Positions 3,324 to 58,279 of a DNA stretch of 64,000 nt are shown piece after piece; the first letter of the stretch is position 1, and every line of letters begins with the position of its first letter. The notes under the pieces were generated by a model, which saw only the letters and a list, made by a program, of their open reading frames with translations, was not told the origin of the DNA and searched no databases. Source of the stretch: Mobula hypostoma (taxonomy: Eukaryota); contig NC_086097.1 in assembly GCF_963921235.1 (NCBI RefSeq), forward strand, positions 126,668,001-126,732,000. Direction: 5' to 3'. The position numbers and the translations under genes are program-made.

Positions 3324-3325
<2 letters not shown>

Positions 3326-20059: not shown

Positions 20060-20870
20060 GATGTGTGTACAAAATTACGGGTATAGCTAAGGTCAATGCA
20101 AGAAGGCTTTTTCCACTGAGCTTGGAGAGACTAGAACAAAAGGTCATGGGTTAAGGGTGAATGGGGAATGAAGGGGAAATTCTTCACTCGGAGGATGGTG
20201 AGTATGGAGTGAGCTGCCGGTGTGGTGGTGGGGGATGCAGGTTCGAATTCAGCATTTAGGAGAAATTTGGAGAAGTACAGGGATGGGAGGGTGTTGTTGG
20301 AAATCAGGTTCGCAGGTTCATGATTGGGGACAGAAGACATGCTGCTGGTAAGTAGGTTAGCTATTTATTTACAAGACAAAACTGACACTAAACACTACAA
20401 GCTAAACTCTGTTTTGAATACAGTACTTACCTAAACTGAGTGCCTGAAGTAACAGGACAAAACAAACACTAAAGTACACAGTGGCTTATACATATCTAAA
20501 GTCTGGTCCTGAGCCCTCTACACTGTAGCACACCCACCACTGTCTACCATTTGCACGATACCCTTGTCTACCTGATCCACAGTGACCCTAGAGGGAAAGA
20601 GGCTGCATGGTTTTTGCATGCTAGATTTAAACTCTACCAGAGCTGTGCGACATCAGCTAAACGGGAGCTAGTGGGAGGGGTTGCAGTGCTCATTATGAGG
20701 GCCAGACCCTACCTCCCACAGGGAAGTGGCTTTCGATGAGCAGGTAATGTTAAGATACTGACTGCAACTGAGGGGTATGGAGGACTGTGGTCCAGGGGCA
20801 GGTGGATGGGACTAGGCACAGACTAGAAGGGCCAAAAGGCCTGTTTCTTTGTTAGTGTTCTATGACTCCA
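20060..20870 (+). mobile_element. CR1 3' fragment split by a solo LTR
   Basis: CR1 sequence ...ggatgggaggg continues as ...gaggggtatggaggactgtggtccagg after the LTR. Confidence 0.75.
20292..20769 (-). mobile_element. Solo LTR (478 bp, 5-bp TSD)
   Basis: Termini TGTTG...CAAC(T); GAGGG at 20287-20291 and 20770-20774; antisense AATAAA (tttatt) near the left end. Confidence 0.7.
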
Positions 20871-21294
20871 TGATTTCCAGGGAACTGTTTGTGATGGTGA
20901 CAAAATATTTATCACGTTTGAGGATGTGCATTAATTCAGTGAGTTACTGTTAATTCTCAATCTTTACTGCAAATCTTATTTGATTAGTGTCAGGTTGGGC
21001 CCTGTGTTGTTACAGTACGAATGAACCATGGTTATAGATATCTCTTAAAGCTATGCATATCGCCAAATAGCATGGTAAACTTGTAAAATGAGTTTTGCTG
21101 AGCATTTGTGTTTGTAGAAAGATTTTCTTGTGCTTAGTGTAACATTGGATTGCAATACTATAGTAATTTAATGTTTTCACTAAAAATTTTAGTAGGTTTT
21201 AAGCTGGCAATTCAATTAAATTTTTAAAGCATTCTAGTCCTATTCTAAAGTCTTTTGACTGGTCTTACAGGAGGCCAGTGTAAGAAGACTGGCT

Positions 21295-22392
21295 AATTGA
21301 TTCATTTACTTGGAGATAAAGCTTAGAACAGGCCCTTCCAACCCAAAGAGCTGCATGGTCCAGCAACTCTCCCATTTAGCCCTAACCTAATCACAAGACA
21401 ATTTACAATGACCAATTAACGCAGAAACATAGAAGATAGGTGCAGGAGTGGGCCATTCAGCCCTTCGAGCCTGCAACGCCATTCAGTATGATCATGGCTG
21501 ATCATCCAACTCAGAACCCTGTACCAGCCTTCTCTCCATACCCCCTGATCCCTTTAGCCACAAGGGCCATACCTAACTCCCTCTTAAATATAGCCAATGA
21601 ACTGGCCTCAACTGTTTCCTGTGGCAGAGAAGTCCACAGATTCATCACTCTCTGTGTGAAGAAGTTTTTCCTAATCTCGGTCCTAAAAGGCTTCCCCTTT
21701 ATCCTTAAGCTGTGACCCCTCATTCTGGACTTCCCCAACATCGGGAACAATCCTCCTGCATCTAGCCTGTCCAATTCCTTTAGGATTTTATACATTTCAA
21801 TCAGATCCCCCCTCAATCTTCTTAATTCCAGCAAGGATAAGCCTAGTCGATCCAGTCTTTCATCATATGAAAGTCCTGCCATCCCAGGAATCAATCTGGT
21901 GAACCTTCTTTGTACTCCCTCTATGGCAAGAATGTCTTTCCTCAGATCAGGGGACCAAAACTGCACACAATACTCCAGGTGTGGTCTCACCAAGGCCTTG
22001 TTCAACTGCAGTAGTACCTCCCTGCTCCTGTACTCGAATCCTCTTGCTATGAATGCCAGCATACCATTCGCCTTTTTCACCGCCTGCTGTACCTGCATGC
22101 CCACTTTCAATGACTGGTGTATAATGACACCCAGGTCTCGTTGCACCTCCCCTTTTCCTAATCGGCCACCATTCAGATAATAATCTGTTTTCCTGTTTTT
22201 GCTACCAAATTGGATTAACCTACTAACTGGTGTGTCTTGGGACTGAGGAAACCGGAGCACCTGGACGAAATTGGTGTGCACGCACTTGGGAAGTACATAC
22301 AAACTTCTTCCGGAGGACTCCAGAATTGAACTCCGAACTCCAATGCTCCGAGCTGTAATAGCGTCATGCTAACCACTACACTACTATGGCGG
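21295..22392 (-). mobile_element. V-SINE/HE1-like tRNA-derived SINE split by a young CR1
   Basis: ...caatttacaatgaccaattaac continues as (attaac)ctactaactgg...gaaaccggagcacc... after 22213; tRNA-like head at about 22320-22392. Confidence 0.7.
21421..22213 (-). mobile_element. Young 5'-truncated CR1 LINE (ORF2 C-terminus plus 3' UTR)
   Basis: Uninterrupted frame FGSKNRKTDYYLNG...RDLGV...KKANGMLAFI...LVRPHLEYCVQFWSP...RLRGDLIE...KAGTGF*; candidate TSD attaac. Confidence 0.95.
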
Positions 22393-22660
22393 TCTTGCAT
22401 AGCTGCATTTTATTGCCATTCTATTGATTGAATAACTCGAATAAACACAGTCACCATTTGTACATTGTTATGCCATAAAAACAATTTGAAGTGATAAAAC
22501 TTTTCCCATGAAGCATTTGGTTAACTTGGAAGTGTGTATTGTACAAGTAGTGTTGGAACCAATGTGCTAAGTTAAATTATGGTAATGTGTACTTGGAGTT
22601 ATAGTTGGGATGTTAAATAATCTTGCTGTAATTGTAATTTCTTCTTCACTATCTTTTAAG

Positions 22661-22815
22661 AGAGTTGTCCATAGAGGAAATGAATGCATTTTACTGGATA
22701 ATACACAACGCAGCAAGTGGAGGGTGATTGGACCAGGAGGAATGGAAATGGAAGTTCCATCTGTTTGTCTTCTCATCCCACCTCCAAACCCTGGTGCAAT
22801 TGATCTTGCAAGCAA
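22661..22815 (+). CDS. DSP: DSP exon 12 equivalent (155 nt; SH3)
   Basis: cttttaag|AGA GTT GTC...AGC AA|gtatga; RSKWRVIGPGGMEMEVPSVCLLIPPPNP. Confidence 0.97.
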
Positions 22816-22919
22816 GTATGAGACTATGTCACTTGACAGTTTACTTGTTTCTTAAACTTATGAATGAAATTTCCTTGTTTTGTTGAAGAATCTGAAAAGG
22901 TGCTTTTTGTTCTGACCAG

Positions 22920-23046
22920 AATTGATCAGTACTACGAGGCTATCCTTGCTCTGTGGAATCAGCTGTACATTAACATGAAGAGCTTGGTGTCCTGGCAATA
23001 CTGCCTGTTAGATATTGAAAAGATACAGAGTTGGACCATATCTGTG
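22920..23046 (+). CDS. DSP: DSP exon 13 equivalent (127 nt)
   Basis: tgaccag|A ATT GAT CAG...TCT GTG|gtaagc; IDQYYEAILALWNQLYINMKSLVSWQYC. Confidence 0.97.
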
Positions 23047-23584
23047 GTAAGCTCCACAAAATCCTCGTTTGTGTATGATGTAGAAACTCTTGCCTCTGGG
23101 GATGAAGTGCAAAGTATTAGATGAGGAAGTACGTTAGGAAAACAATTATAGCATTTGTTAAGATGTGATTAAAGTCTCACAATAGGTTCGAACAATTATG
23201 GAAACGAACAATTTTTTCTGGTCAAGCAAAGGTGATAACAGTTCGTACTGTGACAGGCCTTTTGATCGTCTGACGTATCAGCTGTAGTATTGAATGAGAG
23301 TGTATCCATCCTACTGTGCTAAAATGGTGAAAATGACTTAAAATAAAAAGATGTTTCTAATTAAATCAACAATGGTAACTACTGGGCTCTTTTGACTCCC
23401 TCAAAAGAAGGCACGTCCCTAGATATGAAACTTGTTAGAAATATGTGATTGTATTTCAGTCCCTTTTGCACAATTTTAACCTGAATATGAGAAAATTCTC
23501 ATTTCCTACTCAAGCGTATCATCTGACCAGGTAGGAGGTATTAATTTGCAATGACTTGCAAGTAATCTTTTGTTTTTTTTTCAG

Positions 23585-23786
23585 TTACAGACAATGTCTG
23601 GGGAAGATAGTGAGTTAGTCCTCAGAAGCTTGGAAAAGAACTATAAAGCATTCCAGACATTCAGCAAGGATTCACAGCACTTCACTGATGCAGACAAGCA
23701 TAAACTGGAGAACCAATATAGCTCTAGCAAGAATCATTATACGAGCATGGTAACCAATCTGGAGGAAAAGAGAACTAGTGTCACAG
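23585..23786 (+). CDS. DSP: DSP exon 14 equivalent (202 nt)
   Basis: ttttttcag|TTA CAG ACA ATG...GTC ACA G|gtttgt. Confidence 0.92.
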
Positions 23787-23969
23787 GTTTGTAATGTTTA
23801 CAGTGGTCTGTGGTACTTTGCTGTTGTGCCCAACAATGAAATGAATAGAAATTACTGTTGGATCTGGTGTTGTCAGTGTTTGGAGATCAATCCAGGTTAT
23901 TGTAACTTATTGAGGGAAAGAATGAATTGCTGAATTAATTTTTGGGTATTTTGGTCATTGTTGTTACAT

Positions 23970-24200
23970 CCACACTCAGTGGCCACCTTATTTGGTACAG
24001 GGGGTTCCTAATATAGTGGCCACTGAATGGATTTTGCATGCTCATGGTCTTTTGCTGCTGAAGCCCATCTAGTTCAAAGTTCGGCGTGTTATGCATTCGG
24101 AGAAGTTCTTCTGCACACCACTGTCGAAACAGTTATTTGAGTTACTGTTGCCTTCCTATCATCTTGAACCAGTCAGACCATTCTCCTCTGACCTTTCAAT
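23970..24200. mobile_element. Tc1-like MITE remnant
   Basis: Short inverted repeat actcagtggccac.../...gtggccactgaat at 23971-24030, followed by Tc1-like internal sequence. Confidence 0.5.
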
Positions 24201-24817
24201 AATAGGGTTTTTTTTTTGAGAATTCCGTCTAAACTAATTTTGTCTCAACTTTGTCTTATTAATTTATTGAAGGTACTGCTTTCTTTATGACGAATAAATG
24301 AAGTTGCAGCATTTTAATTGTCAGCTATCACTCATTAATATTCTTGATTCTTTTGATTGTTGCTCAGAGTTTGGAGATCAATTTAGATATTTACCCAAAC
24401 ATAGTGAACACAATTGGATGTGTAAAGGTTGAACACTGGACCAAGGCCATACTACTTTCTGATGTAGTTCCAAATCAAGATATTCTGTAAATGTCCAATC
24501 ACAAGCAAGAGAAAATCTGCAGATGCTGGAAATCCAAGCAACACACACAAAATGCCCTGCAACTCTGCTGCCATTCCCTCTTTGCTGTGCAGAGCAAGGG
24601 TGAAATTCCCCTGGTCCTTTCTAGAATCCATTAACAAGATGATCTTTGTATTTTTAGGGAGTGCAAAGTGAGAAAAATCATATTGTCATTTTCAAATGTT
24701 TCACTGGTTTAGAATGATTGGCTGCTTTAGGAGATTGAATGTGACCTATGGAGATGATTGTTTCATGGAGTGATTGATTTCTTTCTCACCGAAGCGTTGT
24801 TTTTTTTCTCTTGTTAG

Positions 24818-25008
24818 GTCCAACACAGGTGGTATTATCACCACAGCACGCCGCGCCACCACCAAGGATGGACTTGAATTTCCAGCAGGAACTCCAGAAG
24901 ATACGTTATCGTTTGGAGGTGAATGAAAACAAAATGATGGAAAAAATACATCTCCTCATTGATTCAAATGCGCAGGAAGAGTTTGCAGAGAGGATATCTG
25001 AGTTAGAG
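24818..25008 (+). CDS. DSP: DSP exon 15 equivalent (191 nt)
   Basis: ctcttgttag|GT CCA ACA...TTA GAG|gtgaga; QELQKIRYRLE. Confidence 0.9.
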
Positions 25009-26654
25009 GTGAGAATGAAATTATACTAGAATGTAAAATCTTAACTTAAAAACTGCAAATTTTCTATGCATAAGAGTACCTGTATTGCTTCCGATTAATT
25101 TTACGAAATAATATGTTAGGGAGAGGAAATTCGTTTCATTTAAGTTGGTTTTTAGCTTTGTGTATTAATGAATCAACAATCCAGTAGGAAGCAAAAAGGC
25201 ATCCAAGCTTCTTCTGAATAAAGCTTTTGTCTTCATTAGCATTTTGTCAATAAGTCAGATGGATATGGTTTTTATTATCACTTAAGTATTGTTCTAAGTA
25301 AAGGAGTCAGAAAATTCAATTGTGGTCAAGAAGAGAATAAAGCAATGCTTATTTGGGTCTGAAATACTGAACTATTTTCTGAATCAGGACGTTGGCAAAC
25401 TTGCATTGAGTCTTCAGCAATCTCCTCACTGTTTGCACAGGACTTTTTCCCCCAAATTTATGGCTACGTAATAAAGTATCATGTTTTTGCCATGTGATAG
25501 ATCAGGTTCAGAGAAGACGTGAAACAATTGTGAATGTCATCTTCTGTTGTGGTGTTAGCTGAGGAGAGTGTTTTGGAATATTTGACGGCAATAGAATACC
25601 AAGTCTTTGTCCCTTTATTTTAGGTGATAGGCAAATTGGATTTCTTTCAGCTATATGCATACTTTTTTATAAACTTTATATTCTTACTGCACAGTATTTA
25701 GTGATGCTTTGAAAATCTGTCACTTCAGCTGCTTTAATTAACAAACCATTTCACCCCTTGTACTGTAACCCATCTTAAACTGGATGAAGTTGCCAACCTC
25801 CATAGAGGGCAATATGAAGTGACTTCTGTTTGGTCTGTGTGAATAGACAGTTCCTATGTACTGGCCTCCTGAGCAGAAGCTATTGCTAACAGCACATGAG
25901 CTTACTGTCTCGGAGGGAATCAGAAATGCCAGACTGGTACTGAACAAGTACACATTCAATGTTGGGTATAGGAAGGGTGAATGGAGGGGCTGTTCCATTG
26001 CAGATGGTTTGTCTCTCTCTAATAGATCATCCTGAAGCCGTAATGATTTGAAATTGAAGTTTAGAAGTGTTGGTGGATTTTTAAAAATCCAATCAAATAT
26101 TTTAAGAGATTAACAAATTTATGGATTGCATGTAAACGATTGTTATCTAAGGCAATATGTTCTGTTTCAAATCTTGTGGACTGAAATCAAAGGTAACTGG
26201 AGTGCAGTATAGGGTTTGCTTAGGAGTATCGACCATTTGGAAGATTTTCCACACCGTACAATGGACAGTTATGTGAAATAGGAAGAGGCTCTATGAAACT
26301 ACGCTAACAATTCTTTGGCTGATGAGGAGAAATTCACCAAAATAAATTCATCCTGTTGAAAGTCAATAAAATACAGATGTTGGAAATCTAGATACTGTTT
26401 ACTCTTAAGTTTCATGAGAGCAAGGAATTTCATTTGAACTATAGTGTGTATGACAGTGAGCTAATTTGAAATTAAAACAGAAATTTCTGGAAATATTCTG
26501 CAGACGTGGCAGCACCCGTGGATGGATAAACAGATTTAGATTTTCAAGCTGACAGTCTACCATCACTGCTGCTATTTCTCCACCACTGCTACTTGAACTG
26601 CTTGTCGTTTCCAGAACTTTACGATTTAAGTTCACACTGTATTCTTCAACAAGT

Positions 26655-27530
26655 TAGCAAATTGTTTATTATTGTCGCGTGTGCTAGTGTATAGTGAAGA
26701 ACTTTGTTTTGCCTGCTATCCGCACAGAGCGTTTCCTATCAGTATATTGACATGATGTAAGGGGAGGGCAAAAACAGACTGCAGAGTGTAGTGTTCGTGG
26801 CTGTAGAAAAAGTATAGTGCAGGCGCATCCATGATGAGATGGATTGAGGCCGAGAGTCCATCTTATCGTACAAGGGTCGTGGTCGATGATCATATAACAG
26901 GACAGAAGCTGCCCTTCGGCCTGGTGACACTTTCAGGCTTTGGGGGCCTGGGGGGGGGGGGGTTGGTTTTTGTTTCTGTGCCGGTCAGTGGGGATGTACT
27001 GAGTTTAGTCACTTGAGGTAGAGGCACTGGTGTGCTTTTTTGGCTATAGTGTCCACGTGGTTGGACTAGAACAGGCTTGGTGATGTTCCCTCATAGCAAC
27101 CTGAAGCTTTCCACAGTCGTGACCTCAGTGCTGTTAATGTTTACAGGAGCATGTGGGCTGCCACACTTGCTGAAGTCAGTGACTTAGTCTTTTTGATTTG
27201 CTGATGTTTGGGGGAATGTTGTAATACCATGACACTAGGCTCTCTATCTTCTTCCTGTACTCTAAATCATTGTTATTTAAGGTATAGCCCACTATGGTGG
27301 GGGTCTTAAAACTTGCAAGTGGAGTAGAGCAGCATCTAGCCACCTAGTCATGAATGTACAGGGGATAAGGTAAAAGGACTGAGGACACAACCTTGTAGTG
27401 ATTTGAGATGATTGTGGGTGGAGGTGTTGCTGCTTGTTCTCGTTGATTATAGACTGGGCCAGTAAGTCAAGGGTCCAGCTGCAATTGGAGATGTTGAGTC
27501 AAATGTCTAAGGAGGTGAGTTTCCTTGCAA
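26655..27530 (-). mobile_element. Degenerate Rex1-type LINE fragment
   Basis: tttattattgtc tail, gacagaagctg, aacctgaagctttccac; collinear with the 10175-11232 copy. Confidence 0.65.
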
Positions 27531-27700
27531 TACCATTGGGCATTGGTATCTGAAAATTGTATACAAATCAACTTGCATGAGCAGTGCTTACTTTGAAGTC
27601 ACTTGAAATGTATCTTGTGTTCTGGAAACTGTTGTAAAATCGGAAATGCTGTAAAATTTTATTCAATTCTTTTTTTTTCCCTTGAATTTCTCCTTGACAG

Positions 27701-27873
27701 CTTTTGCAAGATCAGTTGAATACAATTGACGATGACTTTATCAGCCTTCAGGATAAATGGTATCGATCACCGAATGCATCAAGCAATCAGAAAGCATATT
27801 TTGAAACAGAATTTAGCCGAATAAGCCAAAGATTGAAGAATGGCAGTGACTTTTCCTCGGCCTATTTAGAGAG
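27701..27873 (+). CDS. DSP: DSP exon 16 equivalent (173 nt)
   Basis: tccttgacag|CTT TTG CAA...TTA GAG AG|gtgaga; LLQDQLNTIDDDFISLQDKW...SSAYLER; phases fit both neighbours. Confidence 0.9.
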
Positions 27874-28669
27874 GTGAGAGGAAGTTTATAGATAAAAATA
27901 AAATTTGAAATTGCAGAGGATATAATGTGTGTATCTGTATACATTGCAGTGTTGTAAAAAATATCTGAAATTTATTAACATAATTGTGATGAATGTTGAT
28001 GTTAAATAATGCATTTATTTTGTTTCAATTCATTGCAGCTTTTCCTAACTTACATCAGATTTTTGTAGTTTCCCTGCGGTTGCTTGCTTGTAATGCTTCC
28101 TTAGAGTTCTTAAGGGTTTTCCCTTAAAGGGCGAGCACATTTAAACAGCTGTTTATCACAATTGCGCTCTACTCTTCCTGTGAGAAACACCCAGGGAACC
28201 TTGATTTGTTTATGTTGATATTAAGTGGCTAGAAAGTAATTCTGTCATGTGTGGTACTTTACCACAGATGGAAAACAAAATTGTGTGTGTGTATATATGT
28301 ATAGAATAAATTAGAGACAACGTTATCATTGTCAAGATGATGCTGAAGTAGTCCACTTTCAATAGAAGTTTTGTTTCTAACTGAAGATTAACTTAAAAGG
28401 CACTTAATGTTGAGTGAAACAGCTTTCGAAGAGCTTTTAATGTGTCACTTGATGTAATACTGTCTGCTGAGCAGTGTGCCAGTTTGCTGATATTTGTACT
28501 TCAGTTTCAAATCTTTCCTTCCTAGTTTTTCATTCCACAAATTTTCTTACAGCATGTAACATGTCAAGCTATACATTCTGTCTGTCACAGTGGAATAGGA
28601 ATTGTGTTCAAGAAACCTGAGATGCTGCACAGTTTCTGTCACCCTTTCTAGAGATGAGATTTCCTTTGA

Positions 28670-29390
28670 CACAGTAAAGTTCAGAGGGATTTAGTTGCTC
28701 TAGTGCATGAATCTCAAAATGCTAGCAGGCAGCTTCGGAAAATAGTTAAGGCAAATTACATTTTGACCTTCATAGAGAAGGTGTGGAATTTAAGAATATG
28801 GGGATTTTTATTACAGTTGTACAGGGTGTTCATGAGGCCACACTGGAATACTGCACACAATCTTTGTCCTCTAAACGTTTTTTTGGGAAAAAAAAATGGG
28901 ATAAGATCGCATTAAAAGATATTCAAAGGAGATTTACCAGAGAGCCTTGTCCTGTCAAGAGAGGCTAAACAGACTGAATCTGTATTGCTTAGAGTTTAGA
29001 AGAATGAAGGGTGATTTTATTCAAAAAAAAATTAAGATCCTAATGCATCTTGAAAAGTAGATATTGAGATGTTTTCACTAGTGAGAGTAACAAACAAGGG
29101 GACAATGCTTCAAGGTAAGAGCCGGGCCATTTACAACTGAGTGCACAGAAGTTTCTTCTCTGTGTGGTAAATCTTTGGAATCCTTAGTCCCAGAAGGTGG
29201 TGGAGCCCAGATCATCTTGAAAGGTAGAAGTGGATGAATGTATGAAAGATCAAGGAATTTAAGGTCTGTGGAAAAGTGGCATGCAAAAGGAGTTGAGGCA
29301 ATTATAGATCAACTGTAATTAGATTAATGGCAGGACAGGCTTTGAGGGGTTCTGGTGGCCTACGCCTGCACCTATTTTCTTGTGTCTTAG
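28670..29390 (+). mobile_element. CR1 LINE 3' fragment, degenerate
   Basis: Remnants KANYILTFI, LLQLYRVFMRPH, LEYC and IQRRFTR. Confidence 0.8.
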
Positions 29391-30315
29391 TTATTTAAAG
29401 ATTCAGCTGAAAATAACGATACTCTCGTTGACACTAAAATTTGCAATTTCTAATTGGCTTCCTCCAAGTGATGATCCAGATTTTAAACTTGCATTGAATA
29501 TGATGCCCTCACTCGTCTTACCTTCTCTTGCCCCTGTAAGTATTCACTTAATGTAAAATAAAAAGTTCCTCTTCACAGACTGACTTATGTGCCCTGGGGA
29601 CAAAAAGATCAGGATACTAAAATTCAACAAAACCGGTAGCAGAAATTGTGTGTAATACGTTAATGCAATCCAGCAGATTGTGTTATGACTGAAAGGACCA
29701 GGTTGGAGTGTTGTTGGTGGAATCACCCCCCTCCCTCTACACTCTGTGTGGTGTAATATCTGCACACTTGGACTGAAGTTGTAGATACGCTGAATATCAG
29801 ACACCAGGGCTCTGATCTCCTTCTCTACCACTGGGCTCGCTATAGAATCCAGCAGTGGGTTTGGAAAGTATTGGGCTGGATGATGCATTCATCCCCTCTG
29901 CTTTACACCAGGCTGAAAGTTCATTCACCATCTGGTTAGTCTCGTGTTTGCACCCTCTATACATTTGAGCACCTCCAAAACTTTGCTTCCTAACATAAAA
30001 ATGGAAATTTGAAGTGGAAGAAAGTAGCTGAAATTTTCAGAAACTTTTTGGGTGATTTGTGGAAATCCAGTGGGTAGGGTTTACAGTAAGCAGTGAACTT
30101 ATGCATGCAGTCCCATTGTGAGGACATAGGGTTAAAATTGGAGCAATTTAATCCATTATAGTTGTGTAAAAGTTATATTCTCATGGCTTCATTTCAACTT
30201 GAGCAAAAGGAATGGTTTTGACAATCAATCAGTAGTGATGTTGCCCTTGTTCTAAAATTTTGTGCAATCAGATATTTTTGCATTAAGATATCAATTAAAT
30301 TTATTTTTTCTTTAG

Positions 30316-30454
30316 AATGAAAGCATTGAGGTTACTCTTCCAAAATATTCTCGAAGTGGAAGATCTGATAAAAGTTTATGAAGCAAGACTAACAGAAGAG
30401 GAGACTGTCCCAATGAGTTTGGAGAAAATCGAATCCTACAGAGACAATCTGAGG
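30316..30454 (+). CDS. DSP: DSP exon 17 equivalent (139 nt)
   Basis: tctttag|A ATG AAA GCA...CTG AGG|gtaaac; VEDLIKVYEARLTEEETV. Confidence 0.97.
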
Positions 30455-31421
30455 GTAAACAGAACTGATGGTATTACTTGCAGATCTTTTTGGGAGCAAT
30501 TAATAGTTTATTTTGGGTAGTTGATAATTTGGCAGGGCAGGTTCTCCAGCCATTTCACATTGAAATTTGTTGATTTCTGCTGGAGGTGTGCAAACTTCTC
30601 TGCCAGGATGTATCCAGATAATCGTAAGTTTACGCTTTTTCTGACTCTTTCAAAAGCTTATTTAGATAAAGTCTGCGTCTACAGAACAAAATGATTCCCC
30701 TTTGTGTGCAAGTGATGTTTGATCTCTTGCAATGATGAATGTAGAATTTCTAAACTTTGAAAAGTGATATAGAAGGGATCAAAAAGTAATAATTATTTCT
30801 GGCGATCTCATTTTGAGATTTGTTTCCTGAAAATATAATAGTTCCATTTACCCACTTTTAAAAGCCAGTTCAAGTGCTGGTTTCTAGTTGGATCTTCGTG
30901 CACTTTGTCAGAAAAGTGCTTTGCTTGTGAATAGCTTGATTGTGGTTATGGCCAAGTTTGATCTACCCATTCGCTTCCAATAGCCATCTGTACATTAAAC
31001 CTAGCCAACATATTGGTTGTGGTTCTTTGGTTTGCAATTCAAGTAACATTAGTGTTTTTCTATTAACTGAGCAAGTTAATAAATTCTCTATTTAACCCTG
31101 GATAAACAACCCCCATAAAGGCAAGCTCTTACAGCTGCTGTGGGCCTGTTTCAAAAAATAACATCAGCTGCACCTGATTTCCGCCCCTTTTTTCACTCAA
31201 AAAAGAGTACACTTTAAGATGTCAGTTCACATGAGATTTCTGGAAAATGAGAATGCATAGAGTGGGACACTTCCTGCACACCATGTCTTCTCTGTCCCCC
31301 CCCCCCCGCCCATCTCCTCATAGTTAAGTGGAGTTTGATGTGCCTCTGTCAACACACGTGCCACGAGCTAAACTCCATAACCTGCAAGTGCTTCAGCTTT
31401 TGTTTTGCTCCTTCCTCTTAG

Positions 31422-31615
31422 AAAATGAAAATGGAAGTGGATCAGAAGAAGAATTTGTTGACGTTGATGCAGCAGAATATGCAGGAATCGTTCCACATCA
31501 ATGACGACATAATGCCATCTTTCTACAAGTGTGATATAGATCTTACAAAGTACAATGAGAAAGTAACGCAGCTGTCAGACAGGTGGCAGAGGATCTACAA
31601 AGAAATTGATAGCAG
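31422..31615 (+). CDS. DSP: DSP exon 18 equivalent (194 nt)
   Basis: cctcttag|AAA ATG AAA...AGC AG|gtgtgg; DLTKYNEKVTQLSDRWQRIYKEIDSR. Confidence 0.96.
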
Positions 31616-33058
31616 GTGTGGGTTTTGCCTTGCCTTTCAAAGGGTTAACAGCTCAGCTGAGTCAGACAACTGAACTCAGTATGTGGTGCTGTAACTGTGG
31701 CTTTGATTGTAGCTGGAAAATCTCAGGCTTTGAGATTTGAATCCGAGTGGTGGTGTAGAAAGCAAACAAACCATGTGTAACTGGTGGCATAAAGCAGAGC
31801 AGATGCCGGAATCTGGAGCAACACACAAACTGCTGGAGGAACTTAGTGGGTTAAGCAGGACGAACAGAAATTGTTGATGTGTCGGATTGAGGCCCTGCGT
31901 CAATACTTGACAATCCATTGATCCTGCATGACCTGCTGAGTTCCACCATCAGAGTGTTTGTCACACTTGCAACTGAATTAATGTATGCAGGTTTGCTAAA
32001 GCCATGTTGGGCTTGGTAGATCTGACCAAGATCCTGGACTTCTGTGCATTTCTCTGGGGGTGATCTGTAATCTGAAGGAAGGCCACAATCTCGGACACTG
32101 TCCTCTGTCACTGATCTATTTAGTTTTGACTAGTCCAGGTCTGATCATGCTCATGTGAATGGCCTTTGATAGCTCCTTTTGTTCTGTGTTGTTGACTAGA
32201 AGCTTGAGACCATCATCTCATAGAAGTTTGTGAATAAGAATTTTAAAAAAACGCTGCAGTGGAGGAAACCTTTTTTAAAAAAAACAGTTGAAAGTATGTA
32301 TTAATTTCTGTTGGTCACTTGTTCTAAGTAGAAAAGCACTGTAGCAGCATTTCTTTGTAGTCACATGAGAAGAATCCAGAACTGAAAAACAGAAATAAAA
32401 TTCTGCATTGGAAACACTCAACAGACTAGGCAGCGTGATTTGGAAAGAGAAGTGCTTAGTGTTTCAGCTTGAAGACGAGGAAAGAGACGAAGTAAGTTAG
32501 TATGAAGTTGTAGATAAGGTAAAACAAAGGTCATTCCGTGCTACTGGAGAAAGAGCACTCAGCCGATAGCACAGATGAATGTCCTCCAGCAGAAATGCCA
32601 AGTTCTGATATAGACTGAGAAAGTGAGTTATCTGAAGTTTGAAAATTCAGAACTGAATCCAGAAGGTTGCAATATTTGTGTTCAAATAAAATTCTGGATC
32701 CCAGTTGGCTTGAAACTACACAGTGGAGGGTGTTAAAGTGCCTAGCTCATTAGTGTGTGCTACGGGTTGTATCTTGGGTAATTCCAGATAATAGCACTGA
32801 TCACTCAAGTACTTAACGGAGAGTAGAATGTGGAAAGCAAATACATCAGACTCTCCATCATAAAGCTGACTGTCCTTTAAGTAACTTCTCTTGTGTTTGG
32901 ATTTCTGATAACTGTTTCCTTCTAAAGACCAAACATTTCTATAAGTTAGAAATTTTCTTGGGCTAGCAATTGGCTAATAGTTTGCCAAAGAAACGACGTC
33001 ATATGAACCGTTGCTGTTCTCAAGTATTTAAACATTTGTGTTTTATTTACATCCCCAG

Positions 33059-33221
33059 GTATTCTGATTTAGACAAAGAACGTAAACAGCTCAGAGACTA
33101 TGGAGATTTGTTCCAGAAGCTTAGTAAGTGGATTGATGTAACAAAACGCAAACAGGATGGGTTGCAAATCAACAGATGTGAGGATACAAATGTCCTTGTA
33201 CAGCAGCTAAATGAACAAAAG
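33059..33221 (+). CDS. DSP: DSP exon 19 equivalent (163 nt)
   Basis: atccccag|G TAT TCT GAT...CAA AAG|gttggt; DLDKERKQLRDY...LNEQK. Confidence 0.96.
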
Positions 33222-33668
33222 GTTGGTATTTTTGTGGTATTCAAAGCATTTACATGTAACCATTACACATCAGCTATAACAAATTTTCATTGGAGTTAAA
33301 TCAAAGTAGTTCAGACAAGCAAAACGTGCAGTTTAAGATTGCATGATTTGATCCCATATAAAACGCAGATAATAATTCTAATTAGCTGCCACAGTAACCC
33401 TGTGACATATAGATTTTTCTCCCCTGTCTGAGAGGTGTGCTGGCATTTAGATTCACAAATTGTCCTGGTGTAAATGGGCAGTGGGAGCATTAGGATGTTA
33501 CTTTATGGGCTTGTGAGAGAATAGTTGGGAGGTCAATAAGTAAGGAATGGGATAGATGAATATTGCCATGGACTTGATGGGCTAAGGGAAATATGAGAGA
33601 TGAGAAGTGATGCACATTTCCATTTTAAAAAAAAAAGTAAAAACTAATTATTTTTTGTCTGTGATCTC

Positions 33669-34345
33669 TCTTTTTAAATCTTTTTATTAATTATTATTGA
33701 AAATCAACAACAGAGGGAAAAGTACATCAAAATAATCAAGACAACGTATCCATGTGTAGAATAAGAGTTAAGCTATCAACCAGGCTGAACAGTATATCAA
33801 TAATAATCAAAAAACAAAGTGTTAAAGCTTTTTTTATATGGGAAAGGAAAGAAAGAAAAAAAGAACCCCTACTAACTAAAACAGAGAAAACCCCTAATAA
33901 CTTTTTAAAAAAAAAAAGGGGGGGGAAAAAACCCCATTTGGAGCACAAACCCGGAGCTATGCGCCATACAAGCTTCCATTTTAAAAAAAAGATATTAAAC
34001 CGCCAACGAAGTCCATATACCCAAGCATCAGAAAAGGACTATCTTTATTAACTCAAGTCAAATGATAATAACGGGCAAAAGAACCCCACCTTTTCTCGAA
34101 GTCAAATCTGGGATTAAAAGTTCGACTTCTAATTTTTTCCAAACTAAGACATAACATCACCTGAGAGAACCATTGTATCAAAGTGGGAGCAGAGGCATCT
34201 TTCCATTTTAATAAAATAGCCCTTCTAGCCAATAATGTGACAAATGCAATTACGTATTGGTCAGTTTTAGAAATACTGTGAATATGAAGAGGAATTATAC
34301 CAAACAAAACTGTCAATTTATTAGGTTGTAAATTGATTTTTAAAC
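33669..34345 (-). mobile_element. L1/Tx1-type LINE 3' end
   Basis: ORF LFGIIP...IAFVTLLARRAILLKWKDASAPT...LSLEKIR...W; 3' end aataaaaagatttaaaaa on the minus strand; homologous to 62362-62983. Confidence 0.85.
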
Positions 34346-35151
34346 TATTTCATTTAACTTCGTTATTAGGAGCTCCTTTATCCTATGATTAATCAATCAT
34401 TATGAATTTGGTACCAGTTTCGTAAGTTTTTTAATCTTAAAAAATTTAACCTTTTTAGTTTAATTTATCGAAACTATTTATTTAAACCTTCACTTAGTGA
34501 TCCTACCTTTTCTCTTTGGAGGAATAAAGGAACTTTTTCCTTTATGGACTTGTTTCAAGAAGATTGAGTGATTGATCTCTCAATGCACAGGATAAATAGC
34601 TTAAATGCTCATTTTATAAACGGAGCCTGAGGCCAGTGTATTGGAAACACAACCAAGGTCGGGGAAATGAACATTTGAAATTCAGTTTCATCAATGGTTC
34701 TTTATCTACAGGAAGGAAAGTGGAATTTGAGTATTGGTCTGAATTTTGGGATTGTGGCCAAAGAGCTTAGATGGCTATTTATTGTGCTGATTTCTGCTAA
34801 CTTTTAGAAAGCCCCTGAGTGGTTACCCTGTACCATTGTCCATCTAATCCAGCATGGCATTCTTTCCCAGAGCTTGTGATGTGTCGGCAAGGCAATTCTT
34901 AGCTTGGCTTCCCAACACAAAAGATGAGTCTGTCCATTGGGATGTGCCTTACCTAAACCAGAGGGTAAATGCTGTATTAAATGGAAACCAGGAGAGAGCA
35001 GGGAGAGAAAAATGATGTGCTGAAGAGATAGAACAAAGCACTTTTTTTTAAAAAATAAAAGTGGTTTTGAACCAAGTTAGGCAGACAATTGCTTCTGGGC
35101 TATTCCACTGACTGTCAGCTGTTCAGGACTCCACGTGCCTTACACTTTTTG

Positions 35152-35450
35152 TGTGGCACAATGGTACGACAATCAGCGCTGCTTCTGCAGAGCTCTAACA
35201 ACACAGGTTCAATCCTGACCTCAGGTTCTGTATTTGGAGCTTAACATTCTCCCTCTGATCACATGAATATCCTCTGGGTGTTCTGGCATTTTCTTGCATT
35301 GAAGGGACATGTTGATTGGCCATTGTAAATGACCCCTTCTGCAGATTGGTGACAGAAAAGCCACTAGGAAATTAATGGGAATGTGAGAAATTATATTGTA
35401 GGTTGCAGGGCAATGGGACTCGTGGGAGTGCTCTGGGTTTAGACTTGCAT
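35152..35450 (+). mobile_element. V-SINE/HE1-like SINE
   Basis: tRNA-like A/B boxes (gtggcacaatggta..., ggttcaatcctgacctc) and a conserved central domain; related copies at about 36570-36745 and 48285-48560. Confidence 0.65.
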
Positions 35451-37366
35451 GGATGATATTCAGCCCATTGTTATATTGTAAGAAAATATGACAGGTATAA
35501 GTCCGAAGTGAGCTGGAAGTTGGATGCAGTTGTATCTGACTACCCACTCTATTACGGAACTTGCCACTAAGACCAGCACTGAAGAAATGGAAAGATGCAC
35601 TTGGCACTTGGCCCCTCAGCTTAATGGAGTTACTGGTATTGGAGGAAGGTAAGTGCTAGAATTTGTCTCTTTTTTTGGTTTTTTCAGTTTTTTATTAATA
35701 TTTTTTGAAATTTGTTGGGTTTGTAAAATTATTTAAATTTGATAAGGTCTGTAATGTCTTTTCAAACATTTTAGAATGGCTTTTAAATCCTTTAACAGCT
35801 TTGAACTGTGCAAGACTGGGTGTTCCTGGGAGGAACACATAAGACTTCAAGTTACTCTATCAGAAACTTAGTAACTCCTCGGAGCCTGCTCCAACACACT
35901 GGGTGCCCATTAGTGCAAAGGGACAGTTAGCCCAGGAAAGGTAAATGCAAGTGGGCAAGTCCCACAGATGTTGTGTCCGGGCAGTGAGGCTGGCGCTACC
36001 ATTCAGCTCTGTTTGCCAATTAAATTTGATGAAATGAGACTTCACACTTGCTAATCTTGCAATGTCAGTGATGATCCTGAGGCAACCAGGGGCATCTTCT
36101 GGAATCCCCTCAATTTGAGAAGGCCAATGATGTTTCCTACTCTCTCATTTGAGAGGTGGCAAATATGGGATGAAACGTTCTACTACTTTAAGGAGGACTT
36201 TCTTTGGGCATAACAATGTAATGACCTGAAGTATTGTCTGAGGAAAAGCAGAAAAAGGTTTGCTCCTATTTGTGGCTTAGCTGGTAGATCTAACATTGAA
36301 CTCCTATGTGGAAGATTACCCAAATAAGACCAGTTCATAAGTTTAAGCTCTAAACTTTCAAGTGAAAATGGTTTTTCATCACATGCTCTGAGGTGGCAGA
36401 ACTGGGATCTACCTGATAGCAGACGTGGAACTGGTGGGAATTCCTCTAGCTCGTAACAGTTTTGCTTTCCCTACCTGTGTCTGTTGTGACGAGTACACGA
36501 AACTGCCAATCACGTACTCGGCCTTGACCACTTGCATTGGAAATGTGGACAATGGCAGTGCCATAAGCAAGCTTCCTCCGGGTGCTCCTTTTTCTTCCCA
36601 CAGTCCAAAGATGTACTGGTTAGTAGGTTAATTGGTCATTGTGAATTGCCCTGTGATTAGGCTAGTGTTAAATATAGGTAGGTTTCTGGACGGCATGGTT
36701 TGTTGTGCAGGGAAGGCCTGTTCTGTGCTGTATTTCTAAATAAATTAAATCCAGTAGGGGCCCGATTCTGTTGGGGAAATACTGGCAGTTCTCTACATTT
36801 AAATGTTTTAGTGCCATCGTGTTTAGGATTCCAGCACACATAATGACATCCTAACCTTGCTGACCATGTTTAAGTGACCATTGCACAACAGCAGTCCAAT
36901 GTGAAACTTGTGTGCAGCAGTAGTGTATGAACCTGTGGGGCTTCCTCAGTTCTCGGCCTGCGGAATCTGTTCTGACACAACGCCACTTTGGAGCTGAAGG
37001 CAAGTGTTTGGTAGCCTACATTTTACTTTGGAGGATTAATCAAATGAATTAACATTTGAAAAGTGCACTTTAGTACTTTTATGATTGTGTTTTTTTTTTA
37101 AAAAGCCAGGCAAGCTTATTCAGAGGTCAGAACATTTTTCAGTTGTTCTGTCATTAAGACTGCTTTGGCTCTTGTAACAGCATCACATTGTGTTTGACCC
37201 GCTAGCAGGAGATTAACCTCAGGAAAGTTTGGCGCCATTCCCACTAACTGACAAAATTGTGTTTTTTTTTCCCTTTGGTTACTTCTTCCTTTGATACATT
37301 GAGATCGAATGATACCTGTTGAAAAGAACTTCTTCCTGTTAACATTTTTGCTTTATTGTTGATTAG

Positions 37367-37450
37367 AACTTGCACTCAGAAATAAAGAATAAACGAAGTG
37401 ATGTTGAAGAGTACCAAAAACATGCAGACCACTGTGCAACATCTGTAAAG
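37367..37450 (+). CDS. DSP: DSP exon 20 equivalent (84 nt)
   Basis: gattag|AAC TTG CAC TCA GAA ATA...GTA AAG|gtagga; NLHSEIKNKRSDVEEYQKHADHCATSVK. Confidence 0.95.
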
Positions 37451-37541
37451 GTAGGAAACTTTTGTCGCCCAAGAAGCGAGTATTGCTGCTTATTCACAAT
37501 ATCATGAAATGAGTGATTTACACAAACTTGTTATTGAACAG

Positions 37542-37649
37542 GATTATGAGCTACAATTAGCATCATATAGCGCTGGCCTGGAAACACTGCTGAATATTCC
37601 AGTCAAGAGACAAGTGGCACAGTCAATTTCCACTACAATTCTTCATGAG
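37542..37649 (+). CDS. DSP: DSP exon 21 equivalent (108 nt)
   Basis: gaacag|GAT TAT GAG...CAT GAG|gtatgt; DYELQLASYSAGLETLLNIPVKR. Confidence 0.97.
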
Positions 37650-44768: not shown

Positions 44769-44867
44769 TCTGCAGATCTGCAGTCTCGTTACATAGAACT
44801 GCTTACAAGATCCAGTGACTACTACAAGTACCTAAGTGAGATGTTGAAGAGCATGGAAGAAGCAAAG
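44769..44867 (+). CDS. DSP: DSP exon 22 equivalent (99 nt)
   Basis: ttcaccag|TCT GCA GAT...GCA AAG|gtgaat; SADLQSRYIELLTRSSDYYKYLSEMLKSMEEAK. Confidence 0.96.
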
Positions 44868-45166: not shown

Positions 45167-46984
45167 ATAAAAAACACAAAAATTGAGCTTTTGGAAGAGG
45201 CACTTAAAAATGCCCAAGATGAGAATGCTGATAGTATGCACCAGAAGAAGTATCTTGATCAACATTTAAGCCAGGTTCAGAGTGAGTACACAGACTTCCG
45301 GAAAAAGATACTCCTCCTGGAGGAGCAGAAGAGGAATGCTGAAATAGACCGAGATGCCACGAAACACAGTCTGGATGCACAACTTATCAAAATAAAGGAA
45401 GTCAATGAGAAGATCACAAGACTGACGTTTGAAATTGATGAGGAAAAAAGAAAGAGAAAATTAGCTGAAACCCAGTGTGACCAACGAAAGGATGAATATG
45501 ATAGTATTTTTCGAATGAAGCAGAAGGAGCTTGATGAGGCTCACTGGCTCAAATTGGAGCTTGAGAAATCGATCAAAGACAAGGAAAGAGAGATGGAAAA
45601 GCTTAGGGGTGTATTGAAGGAGGAGTCTTTAAGAAGGCAACAACTTGAAAGTGAACTAGATAGGCTTAGGGACCATTTTGAGCAGGAAAAAAGGGTATTG
45701 AATTCACAGATTGAAAAAGAGGTTCACATAAGGGAAACCACAGTTGAAAAGTTAACTATGAAGAAGGAAGATGATGTTGCCACTTTGAATATTCAGTTGC
45801 AAAAGGCTCTGAATGAGAAAAAGAACCTCAGTGATGAAATAGATCGATTAAAAAGTTCTGCGAGGGAAATTGAGCTGAGTAGGAAAAGAGCAGAAAATGA
45901 TGTTTTGCAACAGAAATCAGCTAGTGCTGAAGAGTCCAGAAAGAGGATGGAGCTTGAACTAGAAATAGAAACACTCACCAAGTTTAAAACTGAGGAAACT
46001 TTGAGGTTTAAATCATTTCAGGAGGATACCTCCAAAGCTATCCATGACAAAGCCAAGGAGATCGAAAGGGTGAAGATCTTACTGGAGGAAGAAATAAATA
46101 AGCGGAAGCATTTGGAAAATGAGAATGATGAATTGAAAAAAATAAAAACAGATTTTCAGAAAAAGGAAGCTGAAAATCTTGCTAAAATTAAAATCACAGA
46201 GCAAGAGTTTACAATTATAAAGGTGGAACGTGACAGAATATCTAGAGAAAAGGCTGGTTTGGAAAATGAAATTGCACGCCTGCAGAACAGTTTAAGGGAG
46301 GTGAACAGTGGGAAGTATAAGATAGATGAGGAGCTGAAACAGCTAAGGAAGAATCTAAGTGAAGAGACTGCGAAGAGAAGTACTGCTGAAGAGAAGTTTA
46401 GAAACCTTGAGCAAAAGTGCAGGGAGCATACAAGTTCAATTACGCGGCTTACCCATCAGATTGAAGAAATCTCAATCATGAAGAAGAAGGTGGAAAATGA
46501 TCTCTTTGAGCAACGGAACACTTTGGAACAGCAACGCAAGGAGAAGGCCATCAGCACAGAGGAGTTGAGTAGGTTGTACACTGACATAGAAACACTGCGT
46601 CGCCAGTTGAATCAAGAGAAAGAGAACGTGAGACAGGCTCATCAGAGAAATGAGTACTTGCAGAAAACAATTGAAGAGAAAAGCAAGATTTTGAACGAAA
46701 GCATAAGTGAAATAGATAGGCTGCGTTCTGTTGTGGAAAACCTCACCAAAGAGCGACTGAAGTTGGAGGAAGAATTGAGAAACTTGAGGTCAGAATTTGA
46801 TGATCTCCACAGAAGCCAAAGTGAAACGGAGGGTGAGAAGTCGCAAACCATCTCGGAGTTGAGGATGCAACTTGAACTTTCTAACAAAAGAACAACTGAC
46901 CTACAGGAGCTAATTATTGAGTTAAAGAATGAGAGGGAAAAATTGAAACTGGAAGTTGAATCATTCCAAAAGCAAGCTCTGGAG
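45167..46984 (+). CDS. DSP: DSP exon 23 equivalent, coiled-coil rod (1818 nt, 606 codons)
   Basis: atacag|ATA AAA AAC ACA AAA ATT GAG...GCT CTG GAG|gtacat; starts IKNTKIELLEE and ends FQKQALE, matching the recalled human exon 23 boundaries. Confidence 0.97.
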
Positions 46985-55138: not shown

Positions 55139-58100
55139 GCAACCAATATGATTAAGCAGACACATACTGCTCATAAAGACATTTTGCAAGAAAAAGAATC
55201 TCTGCTGCTGAAGATCAAACTCTTGGAACAGGATAAGGCAAGGCTTCAACGTTATGAAGATGAACTAAGTAGAGTAAAGGCACTCCTTGAAGCTGAATCC
55301 CGCATGAAGCAGCGACTTCAGGATGAAGTCGATATCATCAGAACTGACATAAGCTACTGGAAGAATCAGGCAGAAGTGCAACAGTTAGAAAAGGGCAAAT
55401 CAAATAGTGAGTTTGAGCGTTTGAAAGCTGAGCTAGAGAGACTGCAAGCAGAACTGAGAATGACTGAAGAAAGATACAGACGGAAGCTTGAGGATAGTGA
55501 AAGAGCGAAGAGGATGGAGCTGGAAGCACTTGAAGCCAAAACAAAATTAGAAATTGAAAAGCTCAGTCAGACACTGCCAACTTTCAACAGACATGCTCAA
55601 ACAGGTAATATGGTTGTGGTTGATTCTGCAAAACTTTTGTTTGATGGAATCCGTAAAAAGGTTACAGCAACCCAGTTGTATGATTGCCAGCTAATAGATG
55701 AATCAACTTTAGAAAAGCTGCTGAGAGGAGAAAGAACTTTGATGGATGTTTCCAACGACATTAATGTGAATCTTCATGGGTTGGAGAGTATAGCTGGAGT
55801 CTATTCACAGTCAAATGGAAAAAAACTCTCAATATCTGAGGCAGCAAAAGAGAATATCATTAGTCCTGATGAGGCTATATCACTTTTGGAAGCACAGGCA
55901 GCTACTGGATTCATCATTGATCCACACAGAAACAAAAGGGTGACTGTGGATGAAGCTGTTGCAACAGGCCTTGTGGATCATAAAGACAGGGACAAACTCC
56001 TGGTAGCAGAAAAGGCTGTAACTGGATTTAAAGACCCATTCACAGGAAAGGTTATCTCACTATTTGAAGCAATGAAGAAGAATATCATTGACAAGGTGAC
56101 AGGCCTTCGCTTGTTACAGGCACAGATTGCAGCAGGTGGAATAGTTGACTCAATTAACAGTGTGTATTTGCCAAAAGAGCTGGCATATAAACGTGGGCTG
56201 GTTGATGCAGAAATGTATCAAAAGCTTACATCTCCTTTTGATGAATCAAAAATCTTTGTTGATCCAAACACAGATTCCAAAGTTTCCTATCAGCAGCTGA
56301 AATTAAACTGCAGAACAGATCCTGGGACAGATTTATTACTTTTGCCTTTGCAAAAGTCAGAAATGGAATTACCAGGAATCAGAGCACCTGTTCTACTGCA
56401 GGATCTTGTAAATGCCCAGATTATAGATAGAAAAACAGCAGACCAACTTAAACATGGACGGCTCACGATAGATGATGTTGCTGCCCAGTACAAGGGCTAC
56501 CTGCAAGGTGACAGTTGTATTGCAGGAGTGTTTGTTGAAGCCACACAGGAAACACTGCCAATCTATCAAGCCATGAGGAAGAGCTTGATTAGACAAGGCA
56601 CAGCCCTTGAGCTACTAGAAGCCCAGGCAGCCACAGGTCATATAATTGATCCAATTAATAACCAAAAGCTAACTGTTGAGGAAGCTGTTGCAAAGAAACT
56701 CATAGGTGTGGAGTTCAAAACAAAACTACTTTCAGCAGAGAGGGCTGTTACTGGTTACAAGGATCCTGAAACTGGGAAGATCATCTCGTTGTTTCAGGCA
56801 ATGCAAAAAGACTTGATTGAACACAATCATGGAATTCGCTTACTTGAAGCCCAAATTGCCACTGGTGGAATTATTGATCCAACGCACAGCCATCGCCTGC
56901 CAGTTGATGTTGCTTACAAGCGTAATTACTTCAACAAAGAATTGAATGAAATTCTGATTGATCCCAGTGATGACTCCAAAGGCTTCTTTGATCCCAACAC
57001 AGAAGAGAATTTGACTTATCTTCAATTAAAGGATCGGTGCTTTACTGATAAAGTCACGGGCCTTTGTTTATTGCCTCTAAAGCAAAAGAAAAAGGAGTCT
57101 ACAACTTCCAGGTCATCTGCAGTAAGAAAGCGTAGAGTAGTCGTTGTGGATCCTGAAACAGACCGAGAAATGTCAGTACGCGAGGCATATCACAAAGACC
57201 TGATAGATTATGAGACTTTCCTTGAACTTTCTGAACAGGAGGCAGAGTGGGAAGAGATAACAATTAAAGGATCAGATGGAAGTACCAAAACAGTGGTTGT
57301 TGACAGGAAAACTGGAAATCAGTATGACATTGAAGAATTGTTACAGAGAGGCATAATTGACAAGAAGAGTTATGACGACTACCGGGCTGGAGCTCTGACA
57401 CTTTCACAGTTTGTGGATTTGTTTACTGATAAGGATAATCTTACTGCATCTAAAGTGAGCAGTGTAATGAACAGTAGTCCAATTCCATCACTAAGTTTAA
57501 AACAGCCTTTTGATTCTTTGGAGGATGCTTCTCCCATTGCCGCCATCTTTGATGTTGAAACATTGGAAAAAATAACAATTTCTGAAGCCATGTGTCGCAA
57601 TATTGTTGATACAATTACAGGGCAGAGGCTTCTAGAAGCCCAGGCCTGTACAGGAGGTATAATAAATCCTGGAACTGGTCAGAAGCTATCCATTCAAGAT
57701 GCTATATACCAATGCATCATTGATGAAGAAATGGGAAAGCGGTTAAAACCGGCCCAGAAAGCTTTTGTCGGTTTTGACGACGTGAAGAACAAGAAAAGAC
57801 TCTCTGCAGCAGAAGCAATGCAAGAGAATTGGCTGCCACATGAAGCTGGGCAACGTTTCCTCGAGTACCAGTGTGCTACAGGTGGACTTGTCGTGCCAAA
57901 TGTTGCAGGACGAATTACCATTGATGAAGCATTAAGGAGAGGCTTGGTTAATGCCAAATCAGCTCAGAAACTGCAGGATAGCAGCAGTTACTCAAAATGT
58001 ATGACTTGTCCCAAAACAAAATTGAAGATTTCATATAAGGAGGCAGTAGATCGTTCAATGGTTGAAGACAAGACTGGCCTGCGGCTGTTAGAAGCGACAT

Positions 58101-58279
58101 CGTTTTCTACCAAAGGAATTAATAGTGCATACAATACAGGTGGTTTCTCTGGACCAGGTTCCCGACCAGGTTCCCGTTCAAGCTCAAGAAGTGGGTCAAG
58201 ACGAGGAAGTTTTGATGCCAGCTCTTCCATTTTAACTAGTAGTCATATAACCATTAAATCCTCTTCTATTATACATTAA
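55139..58279 (+). CDS. DSP: DSP exon 24 equivalent: rod end, plakin repeat domains A, B, linker, C and GSR tail, with stop codon
   Basis: acatttag|GCA ACC AAT ATG...CAT TAA; 1046 codons. PRD A about 55620-56350, PRD B about 56360-57080, linker [17 protein letters not shown] about 57520-58095, then GSRRGSFDA. Confidence 0.98.

Follow-up and report, generated by a model that had tools for sequence, protein, structure and literature searches.

Desmoplakin localises to desmosomes and binds intermediate filaments, and its dimeric rod spaces the head, bound to the plaque, from the tail, which binds the filaments. We analyzed a 64,000-nucleotide (nt) stretch of the genome of the ray Mobula hypostoma (NC_086097.1, positions 126,668,001 to 126,732,000, forward strand; hereafter the window), which carries the desmoplakin gene of this species, and focused on the rod exon, exon 23. 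The translation of this exon is 100% identical to residues 1062-1667 of M. hypostoma desmoplakin-like X1 (P0001). Of the exons of P0001, 23 map to the window, and the rod exon is the 22nd of those mapped. Residues 1-93 fall in an upstream exon that has no match in the window, and mapping of P0001 did not find desmoplakin exon 1 within the 64 kb. The rod exon spans 1818 nt, with an AG acceptor before 45167 and a GT donor after 46984, and its 606 codons agree with a first-pass annotation made from the window sequence alone. It is in phase 0 at both ends and can therefore be skipped in frame.

The plakin domain of P0001 contains Spectrin_2, Spectrin_3, SR_plectin_7 and SH3_10 matches, and a domain search of P0001 found no calponin-homology (CH) domain. 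The last exon encodes the C-terminal plectin repeats (PF00681, 8 stretches, E 6.9e-132) and a GSR-rich tail. Within the rod exon, Pfam gave no match. Among 70 protein matches, those with names are desmoplakins or else hypothetical or unnamed products; plectin appears only at E values of about 1e-4 to 1e-7. No second chondrichthyan desmoplakin was present among the protein-search matches, a result that does not extend to paralogs or synteny, which were not checked directly in a genome. By all of the features tested, the ray has an ordinary desmoplakin gene.

Table 1 Features of the M. hypostoma desmoplakin gene, in window coordinates
Feature	Position	Strand	Basis
Desmoplakin exons 2-21, plakin domain with SH3 insert	1107..37649	+	Protein-to-window exon mapping and domain search
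Exon 22; spliced directly to exon 24 in the annotated rodless X2	44769..44867	+	P0266 equals P0001 minus the rod exon
Exon 23, the rod exon; 606 codons, phase 0 at both ends	45167..46984	+	P0001 residues 1062-1667
Motif A, I.DK..E.E.L..L.EE..R...LE.E; rod codons about 134-168	45566..45670	+	Offset-156 profile match starting at codons 131-134
Inferred crossover interval in A, codons 141-153	45587..45625	+	Tetrapod middle-motif comparison
Single 156-codon unit, present as a tandem pair in tetrapods; boundaries uncertain by about 10 codons	45617..46084	+	
Site homologous to the DSPII donor, codons 166|167; reads AGG|CTTAGG at 45665, no GT, not a donor	45662..45670	+	
53 codons from one EE..R...E.E motif to the next; sturgeons have doubled this segment independently	45929..46087	+	
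Motif A', rod codons about 290-324, 156 codons past A	46034..46138	+	Sequence, fish profile
Partner crossover interval in A', codons 297-309	46055-46093	+	Tetrapod middle-motif comparison
Exon 24 (last): rod tail, plectin repeats, GSR tail	55139..58279	+	Exon mapping, Pfam, translation

Of the 246 retrieved proteins that are at least 900 amino acids (aa) long, 207 have both of the fixed anchors between which we measured the rod exon; the remaining 39 were left out for a missing anchor (partial, plectin or divergent). The counts are of records, not species, with clades set from source names or similarity. Full rods measure 605-606 aa in rays, skates, a sawshark and chimaera (14 of 23 chondrichthyan records, with 7 at 0), 606-609 aa in bichirs, gars and bowfin (6 of 22 basal ray-fin records, with 6 at 166, 6 at 0 and 4 sturgeon records at 624-662) and 609 aa in coelacanth and lungfish (9 of 13 lobe-finned fish records, with 2 at 166 and 2 at 0). 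Teleosts and others contribute 110 records, 79 of them at 599-613 and 25 at 164-167. The 39 tetrapod records comprise 17 full rods of 764-766 aa (caecilians, salamanders, frogs, tuatara, turtle and mammals), 13 at 322, 8 at 166 and 1 gappy elephant model. We regarded that model, which is 555 aa long with gaps scattered through it, as faulty, and likewise a chimaera model of 643 aa.

The 156-aa duplicate of tetrapods was found in none of the 168 anchored non-tetrapod records. Non-tetrapod rods longer than 613 aa are those of the sturgeons (53-aa repeat), the 643-aa chimaera model and one carp-family record. Sinocyclocheilus rhinocerous P0255 (754 aa) was considered as a carrier of the tetrapod-type unit and rejected: its repeat is 145 aa long and 20/20 identical in every window tested. 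This repeat, which spans the donor region, is likely an assembly artefact or a very recent duplication.

The first-pass annotation had taken the short rod to be peculiar to this gene. Among fishes a short rod is the normal state, and the unit counts across chondrichthyan, ray-finned, lobe-finned and tetrapod records give one unit in fishes and two in tetrapods only. The annotation had also given 765 codons for human exon 23 and explained the difference from the ray as one missing 156-aa unit plus 3 aa. The human figure is supported by the pig record P0077 and by published isoform lengths, since DSPI minus DSPII is 443+156 = 599 = 765-166 (PMC2896628). Global alignment of tetrapod with ray rods gave the same arithmetic, with +3 near codons 332-335 on top of a net +156, which appears as a single gap in some aligned rows and is split within the repeat in others. 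Self-comparison at offset 156 scored 458-495 in 5 tetrapods vs 25-101 in 15 fishes, which identifies the extra sequence as one tandem block, not scattered insertions. The ray rod, at 83, has no tetrapod-type 156-aa tandem repeat (about 50-60% identity).

Could the assembly have collapsed two units into one? We give this a negligible probability. Spliced contigs from runs X5 (1849 nt) and X7 (1876 nt), both from the same organism, cover the rod exon with 0 differences, and a 9520-nt contig from run X13, a second species, passes from exon 22 through 24 without a gap. These three runs were taken as RNA by guess, and all show GT..AG joints. At a depth of 14.8, vs 14.7-17 for its neighbours, a DNA contig (X1) that may derive from the source sample spans 44700-47335 with 0 differences. 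Depth and contigs across the exon thus show one unit, as do the remaining chondrichthyan records at 605-606 aa. No support for a collapse was found in the three spliced runs and one DNA run, which include no raw long reads.

The single ray unit is bounded by a pair of related motifs that the first-pass annotation had pointed out. IKDKEREMEK begins with codon 136, at 45572, and IHDKAKEIER begins 468 nt or 156 codons further on, with codon 292 at 46040; each is followed by EE..(R/K)R..LE.E, at 45620 and 46088. A further EE motif, absent from that annotation, lies at 45929. We call the two motif regions A and A'. In the ray rod alone, the self-match at offset 156 is weak (score 83, 18/59 identical, third-ranked offset), compared with a best score of 65+/-8 and a maximum of 99 in 60 shuffles of 7-residue blocks. 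As this comparison of a single sequence is too weak to call a repeat, we used a profile of 15 bony-fish rods with a 30-aa window. Offset 156 ranks 1/549 in this profile, was reached by 0/200 shuffles, and is also the top offset in 6 batoid rods. Judged by the fish profile, the two ray motifs are a real repeat. They stand in one heptad register (the a-position mod 7 equals 2 in A and 4 in A', and 156 mod 7 equals 2), and the heptad signal is present in fish rods. The fish profile also contains weaker self-matches at offsets 147, 168, 250, 216 and 61, which hint at older internal rod repeats. Acanthomorph desmoplakin-a records (e.g. P0029, P0034) have a common 4-aa deletion near rod codon 282, which leaves a rod of 605 aa and abolishes the offset-156 self-match.

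The unit tree was built from 38 copies over 156 columns, taken from 12 of the 17 full tetrapod rods and from 14 fish rods. Tetrapod copies 1 (support 100/98) and 2 (93/94) each form a clade, and the two clades are joined at 99/96, with lungfish and coelacanth outside. A topology grouping copy 1 with lungfish was rejected by the approximately unbiased (AU) test (p=0.013). The best reading of these sequences is that the duplication maps to the tetrapod stem as one event. The first-pass annotation had left two options for the ray, an ancestral single unit or the loss of one of two, and the first is supported. Although crossover between matching motifs can delete as easily as it duplicates, a ray that lost a unit from a two-unit ancestor would imply separate losses in chondrichthyans, ray-fins, coelacanth and lungfish. 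With the duplicate missing from all 168 anchored non-tetrapod records and the tetrapod copies being each other's closest relatives, we regard such a loss as extremely improbable.

An older duplication, predating the lungfish-tetrapod split, would require that lungfish and perhaps coelacanth lost a copy. The topology grouping copy 2 with lungfish was not rejected (AU p=0.063), and copy 2 is slightly nearer to lungfish than copy 1 is in several tetrapods (e.g. 0.51 vs 0.46). Gene conversion between the copies could also inflate their likeness. The best tree nevertheless unites both copies, and in 11 of 12 tetrapods the two copies are at least as identical to each other as either of them is to lungfish or coelacanth; the margins are slight in frogs, and the exception is Gastrophryne (copy 1 to copy 2 0.49 vs 0.51). 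We therefore consider the older date very unlikely.

The middle motif of tetrapods is chimeric. It is similar to fish A' up to rod position 297-305 and to fish A from about 310, placing the breakpoint within the common motif. This switch fits a crossover between the motifs giving the order A-B-[A'/A]-B-A'. Misaligned chromosomes would have crossed over between A' and A, or microhomology repair would have joined them, to yield this order. The product would keep the coiled-coil register and have a rod about 23 nm longer. The unequal crossover that the first-pass annotation proposed between these motifs fits as a gain in tetrapods and fails as a loss in the ray.

Sturgeons carry a tandem rod duplication of their own. 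Four Acipenser records (P0009, P0144, P0219 and P0220, including two A. ruthenus genes) have a 53-aa duplicate with 11-14/20 identical residues per window. It is flanked by EE..R...E motifs 53 codons apart, whose ray counterparts are at 45929 and 46088.

A real duplication whose junction lies in the motif only because in-register junctions survive selection, with no pairing of motifs, is a possible but rather doubtful alternative. A and A' are identical at 65/135 DNA positions in the window (48%). This is little for a homologous crossover, so the breakpoint could be accounted for just as well by selection for a junction in register. The common heptad register makes a junction at A/A' structurally seamless. 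Set against this is the independent sturgeon duplication, also located between short EE..R...E.E motifs. However, both selection and mis-pairing predict the sturgeon pattern, and it cannot separate them.

The consequences of the duplication for splicing, on which the first-pass annotation was silent, are the most interesting part of the analysis. In bichir, bowfin and eight teleost pairs of long and short isoforms, splicing occurs after rod codon 166 at K|V and skips 439-443 codons (seven teleost pairs come from one species each; the Lampris pair was assigned by matching sequence). The 166 form is also found in coelacanth, lungfish, gar and sturgeon. Seven same-species amphibian pairs are spliced after codon 322 (166+156) and skip 443-444 codons, and the frog isoforms X3 and X4 differ in length by exactly 156. 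The 322 class accounts for 13/39 tetrapod records (amphibians and reptiles) and 0/168 others. Val at position 167, whose codon supplies the GT, is present in 93/93 full non-tetrapod bony-fish rods, 17/17 tetrapods and 0/10 chondrichthyans. All 17 tetrapods also have Val at the second donor site, one of them shifted by 1. In bony fishes the donor at codon 166 is the only one; tetrapods have a further donor at 322.

Human DSPIa equals DSPII plus 156 aa, or DSPI minus 443 aa, and its donor is 90% like that of DSPII (Cabral 2010, PMC2896628). The words duplication and repeat are not used for this likeness in the passages covered of that paper. From these lengths and the donor likeness, the human DSPIa donor is likely the duplicated DSPII donor. 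A copied donor would produce a third isoform skipping 443 codons, the identical skip to that made from the single fish donor. The step to human rests on the published DSPIa and DSPII numbers (PMC2896628) together with pig and dog records.

Sharks and rays, which have no inner donor, are predicted from sequence to shorten the protein by skipping the whole of exon 23. We had predicted such a skip (2107 aa) in advance because no elasmobranch short isoform matched the exon 23 query and contigs broke at exon edges, and it was then recovered among the protein records: M. hypostoma X2 (P0266) is X1 (P0001) minus exactly the rod exon. Rodless is the only short form among NCBI-annotated chondrichthyan records. 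Across chondrichthyans, basal ray-fins and lobe-finned fishes, 15/58 records (gene models) are rodless, and all three forms (full, 166 and rodless) occur in the annotation of bichir, sturgeon, gar, bowfin, coelacanth and lungfish.

We consider it highly probable that the ray has the ancestral one-unit rod and that the tetrapod duplicate of this unit includes the DSPII donor. A single mis-pairing of the two motifs on the tetrapod stem likely produced the duplicate, and the copied donor likely gave rise to DSPIa. Directly observed are the rod lengths by clade, the one tandem block, the clade of both tetrapod copies, the chimeric in-register middle motif, the isoform junctions at codons 166 and 322, and the lack of a donor at 45665. 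Several results weigh against this interpretation or parts of it. The unit tree has only 156 columns and did not reject the grouping of copy 2 with lungfish, and the DNA identity of A and A' is low. The retrieved proteins include no mammalian 322-class record and no human sequence, and the isoform records are database gene models. In one UniRef chimaera model (P0054), splicing follows codon 164, at an internal donor. The search for a desmoplakin of jawless fishes gave only plectin-like proteins (a lamprey match has CH domains), and the internal donor may have been gained in bony vertebrates or lost in chondrichthyans. The finding of rodless records in 0/39 tetrapods and 0/110 teleosts and others comes from a search-limited sample. 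The exon 22-24 joint is absent among the 15 joints listed of 501 (contigs from sequencing runs), and run X13 is a single full-length contig of the long form with no leftover depth at exon 22.

These last observations, and the status of the records as gene models, would fit rodless isoforms that are annotation noise or trace mis-splicing with no functional protein. We find this unlikely, as the identical exact skip is annotated in 15 records from chondrichthyans, bichirs, sturgeon, gar, bowfin, coelacanth and lungfish, and two additional cluster members have it. In X5 and X7, contigs end at the end of exon 22 or the start of exon 24. A weak hint comes from depth leftovers in X7 (250, 280), which fit a junction contig of ~58 nt at a depth of about 9, although contig depth does not measure expression. 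In plectin, a rodless splice form with PLEC exon 31 skipped is normal and functional; it dimerises and sustains mice (Ketema 2015, PMC4571296). Somewhat short of calling it probable, we suggest that the isoform set was rebuilt at the fish-to-tetrapod transition, when the duplication lengthened the rod and made DSPIa, and an ancient rodless form, which sharks and rays still have as their sole short form, disappeared.

The effect of one unit on plaque geometry can be estimated from human isoforms. Distances between tails measured by dSTORM (direct stochastic optical reconstruction microscopy) are 192 nm for DPI, 143 nm for DPIa and 118 nm for DPII, with desmoplakin at about 22 degrees to the membrane (Ainslie 2025, PMC12450459). 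DPIa and DPII differ by just the 156-aa unit, and their tails are 143 vs 118 nm apart. Computed with these data, one unit corresponds to 23 nm of contour, 17-25 nm across the junction and about 9-12 nm per plaque. The first-pass annotation had expected a rod about 23 nm shorter, by which the plaque could be narrowed. The contour estimate stands, but because of the tilt the expected plaque shift is about 9-12 nm per unit, not 23. Rod length would set the distance from the membrane at which keratin or desmin is anchored, in steps of about 9-12 nm per unit per plaque. The long form of the ray is predicted to anchor filaments about 9-12 nm nearer the membrane than human DPI, and the rodless form nearer than DPII. 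In the dSTORM study, single isoforms did not differ in adhesion (PMC12450459), and any advantage of a longer rod on land is speculation.

The proposed duplication would give a simple origin to human DSPIa, whose 90% donor likeness had no explanation in the passages covered of PMC2896628. It would also place on the tetrapod stem a structural change in the chief anchor for keratin in skin and heart. Desmoplakins of the zebrafish type have neither the second unit nor the 322-class isoform, which is relevant when fish are used to model rod variants, and the two aligned copies provide a paralogous map for reading missense variants. The rod-exon lengths form a series for studying the role of rod length: 0, 166 and about 609 in sharks, gar, coelacanth and lungfish vs 166, 322 and 765 in tetrapods. 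A natural rodless desmoplakin, if true, would mean that the exon 23 rod is dispensable for anchoring, and would make in-frame skipping of exon 23 a testable rescue for truncating variants in this exon. The ray gene itself is an ordinary fish desmoplakin, and its value lies in the comparison.

Neither the rod duplication of tetrapods nor its link to DSPIa nor a rodless desmoplakin is described among the open-access matches listed; the subscription literature was not covered. None of the three is mentioned in the passages covered of PMC8782857 and PMC11317759, and the string "duplicat" is absent from those of PMC2896628 and PMC12450459. The rod repeat itself may have been noted before, in the original sequence papers or in the 2020 review of desmosome origins.

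Outside the rod, four percomorph desmoplakin-like or desmoplakin-b records (P0116, P0122, P0150, P0240) have a post-rod part of 2117-3826 aa vs about 1050, probably through expansion of the tail repeats, with the rod still at 609 aa. The post-rod part is about 200-250 aa shorter (796-854 aa) in P0132 (Callorhinchus), P0033 (Anguilla) and P0041 (Labeo). This possibly reflects loss of one plakin repeat domain; model error is also possible, the pig record P0077 (812 aa) being short as well. In the introns of the window, open frames at 21511-22368 (-) and 39986-40468 (+) resemble reverse transcriptase fragments that we take to be of a CR1-type long interspersed nuclear element (LINE). Intron 23 carries high-copy repeats at about 47300-48370 and 53900-54600.

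Bony-fish desmoplakins (zebrafish DESPB_DANRE, gar, coelacanth and lungfish) share the one-unit rod of 605-609 aa with the ray and are colinear with it except for small indels. They differ from it in the K|V donor at codon 166 and three extra residues near codon 333, and sturgeons, unlike the ray, have their own 53-aa duplicate. Human desmoplakin has the same 24-exon layout with one large rod exon (PMC2896628; PMC12450459). Rod length is all that distinguishes its isoforms DSPI, DSPIa and DSPII, and DSPIa minus DSPII is 156 aa, the unit defined in the ray. In contrast, the ray gene has a single unit, lacks an internal donor at the homologous site and is annotated with a rodless isoform. The latter resembles rodless plectin, another plakin that drops a large rod exon in frame and keeps the short coiled coil with which the following exon begins. 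Rodless plectin has been shown to dimerise and function in mammals, whereas rodless desmoplakin is here known only from gene models of non-tetrapod, non-teleost fishes.
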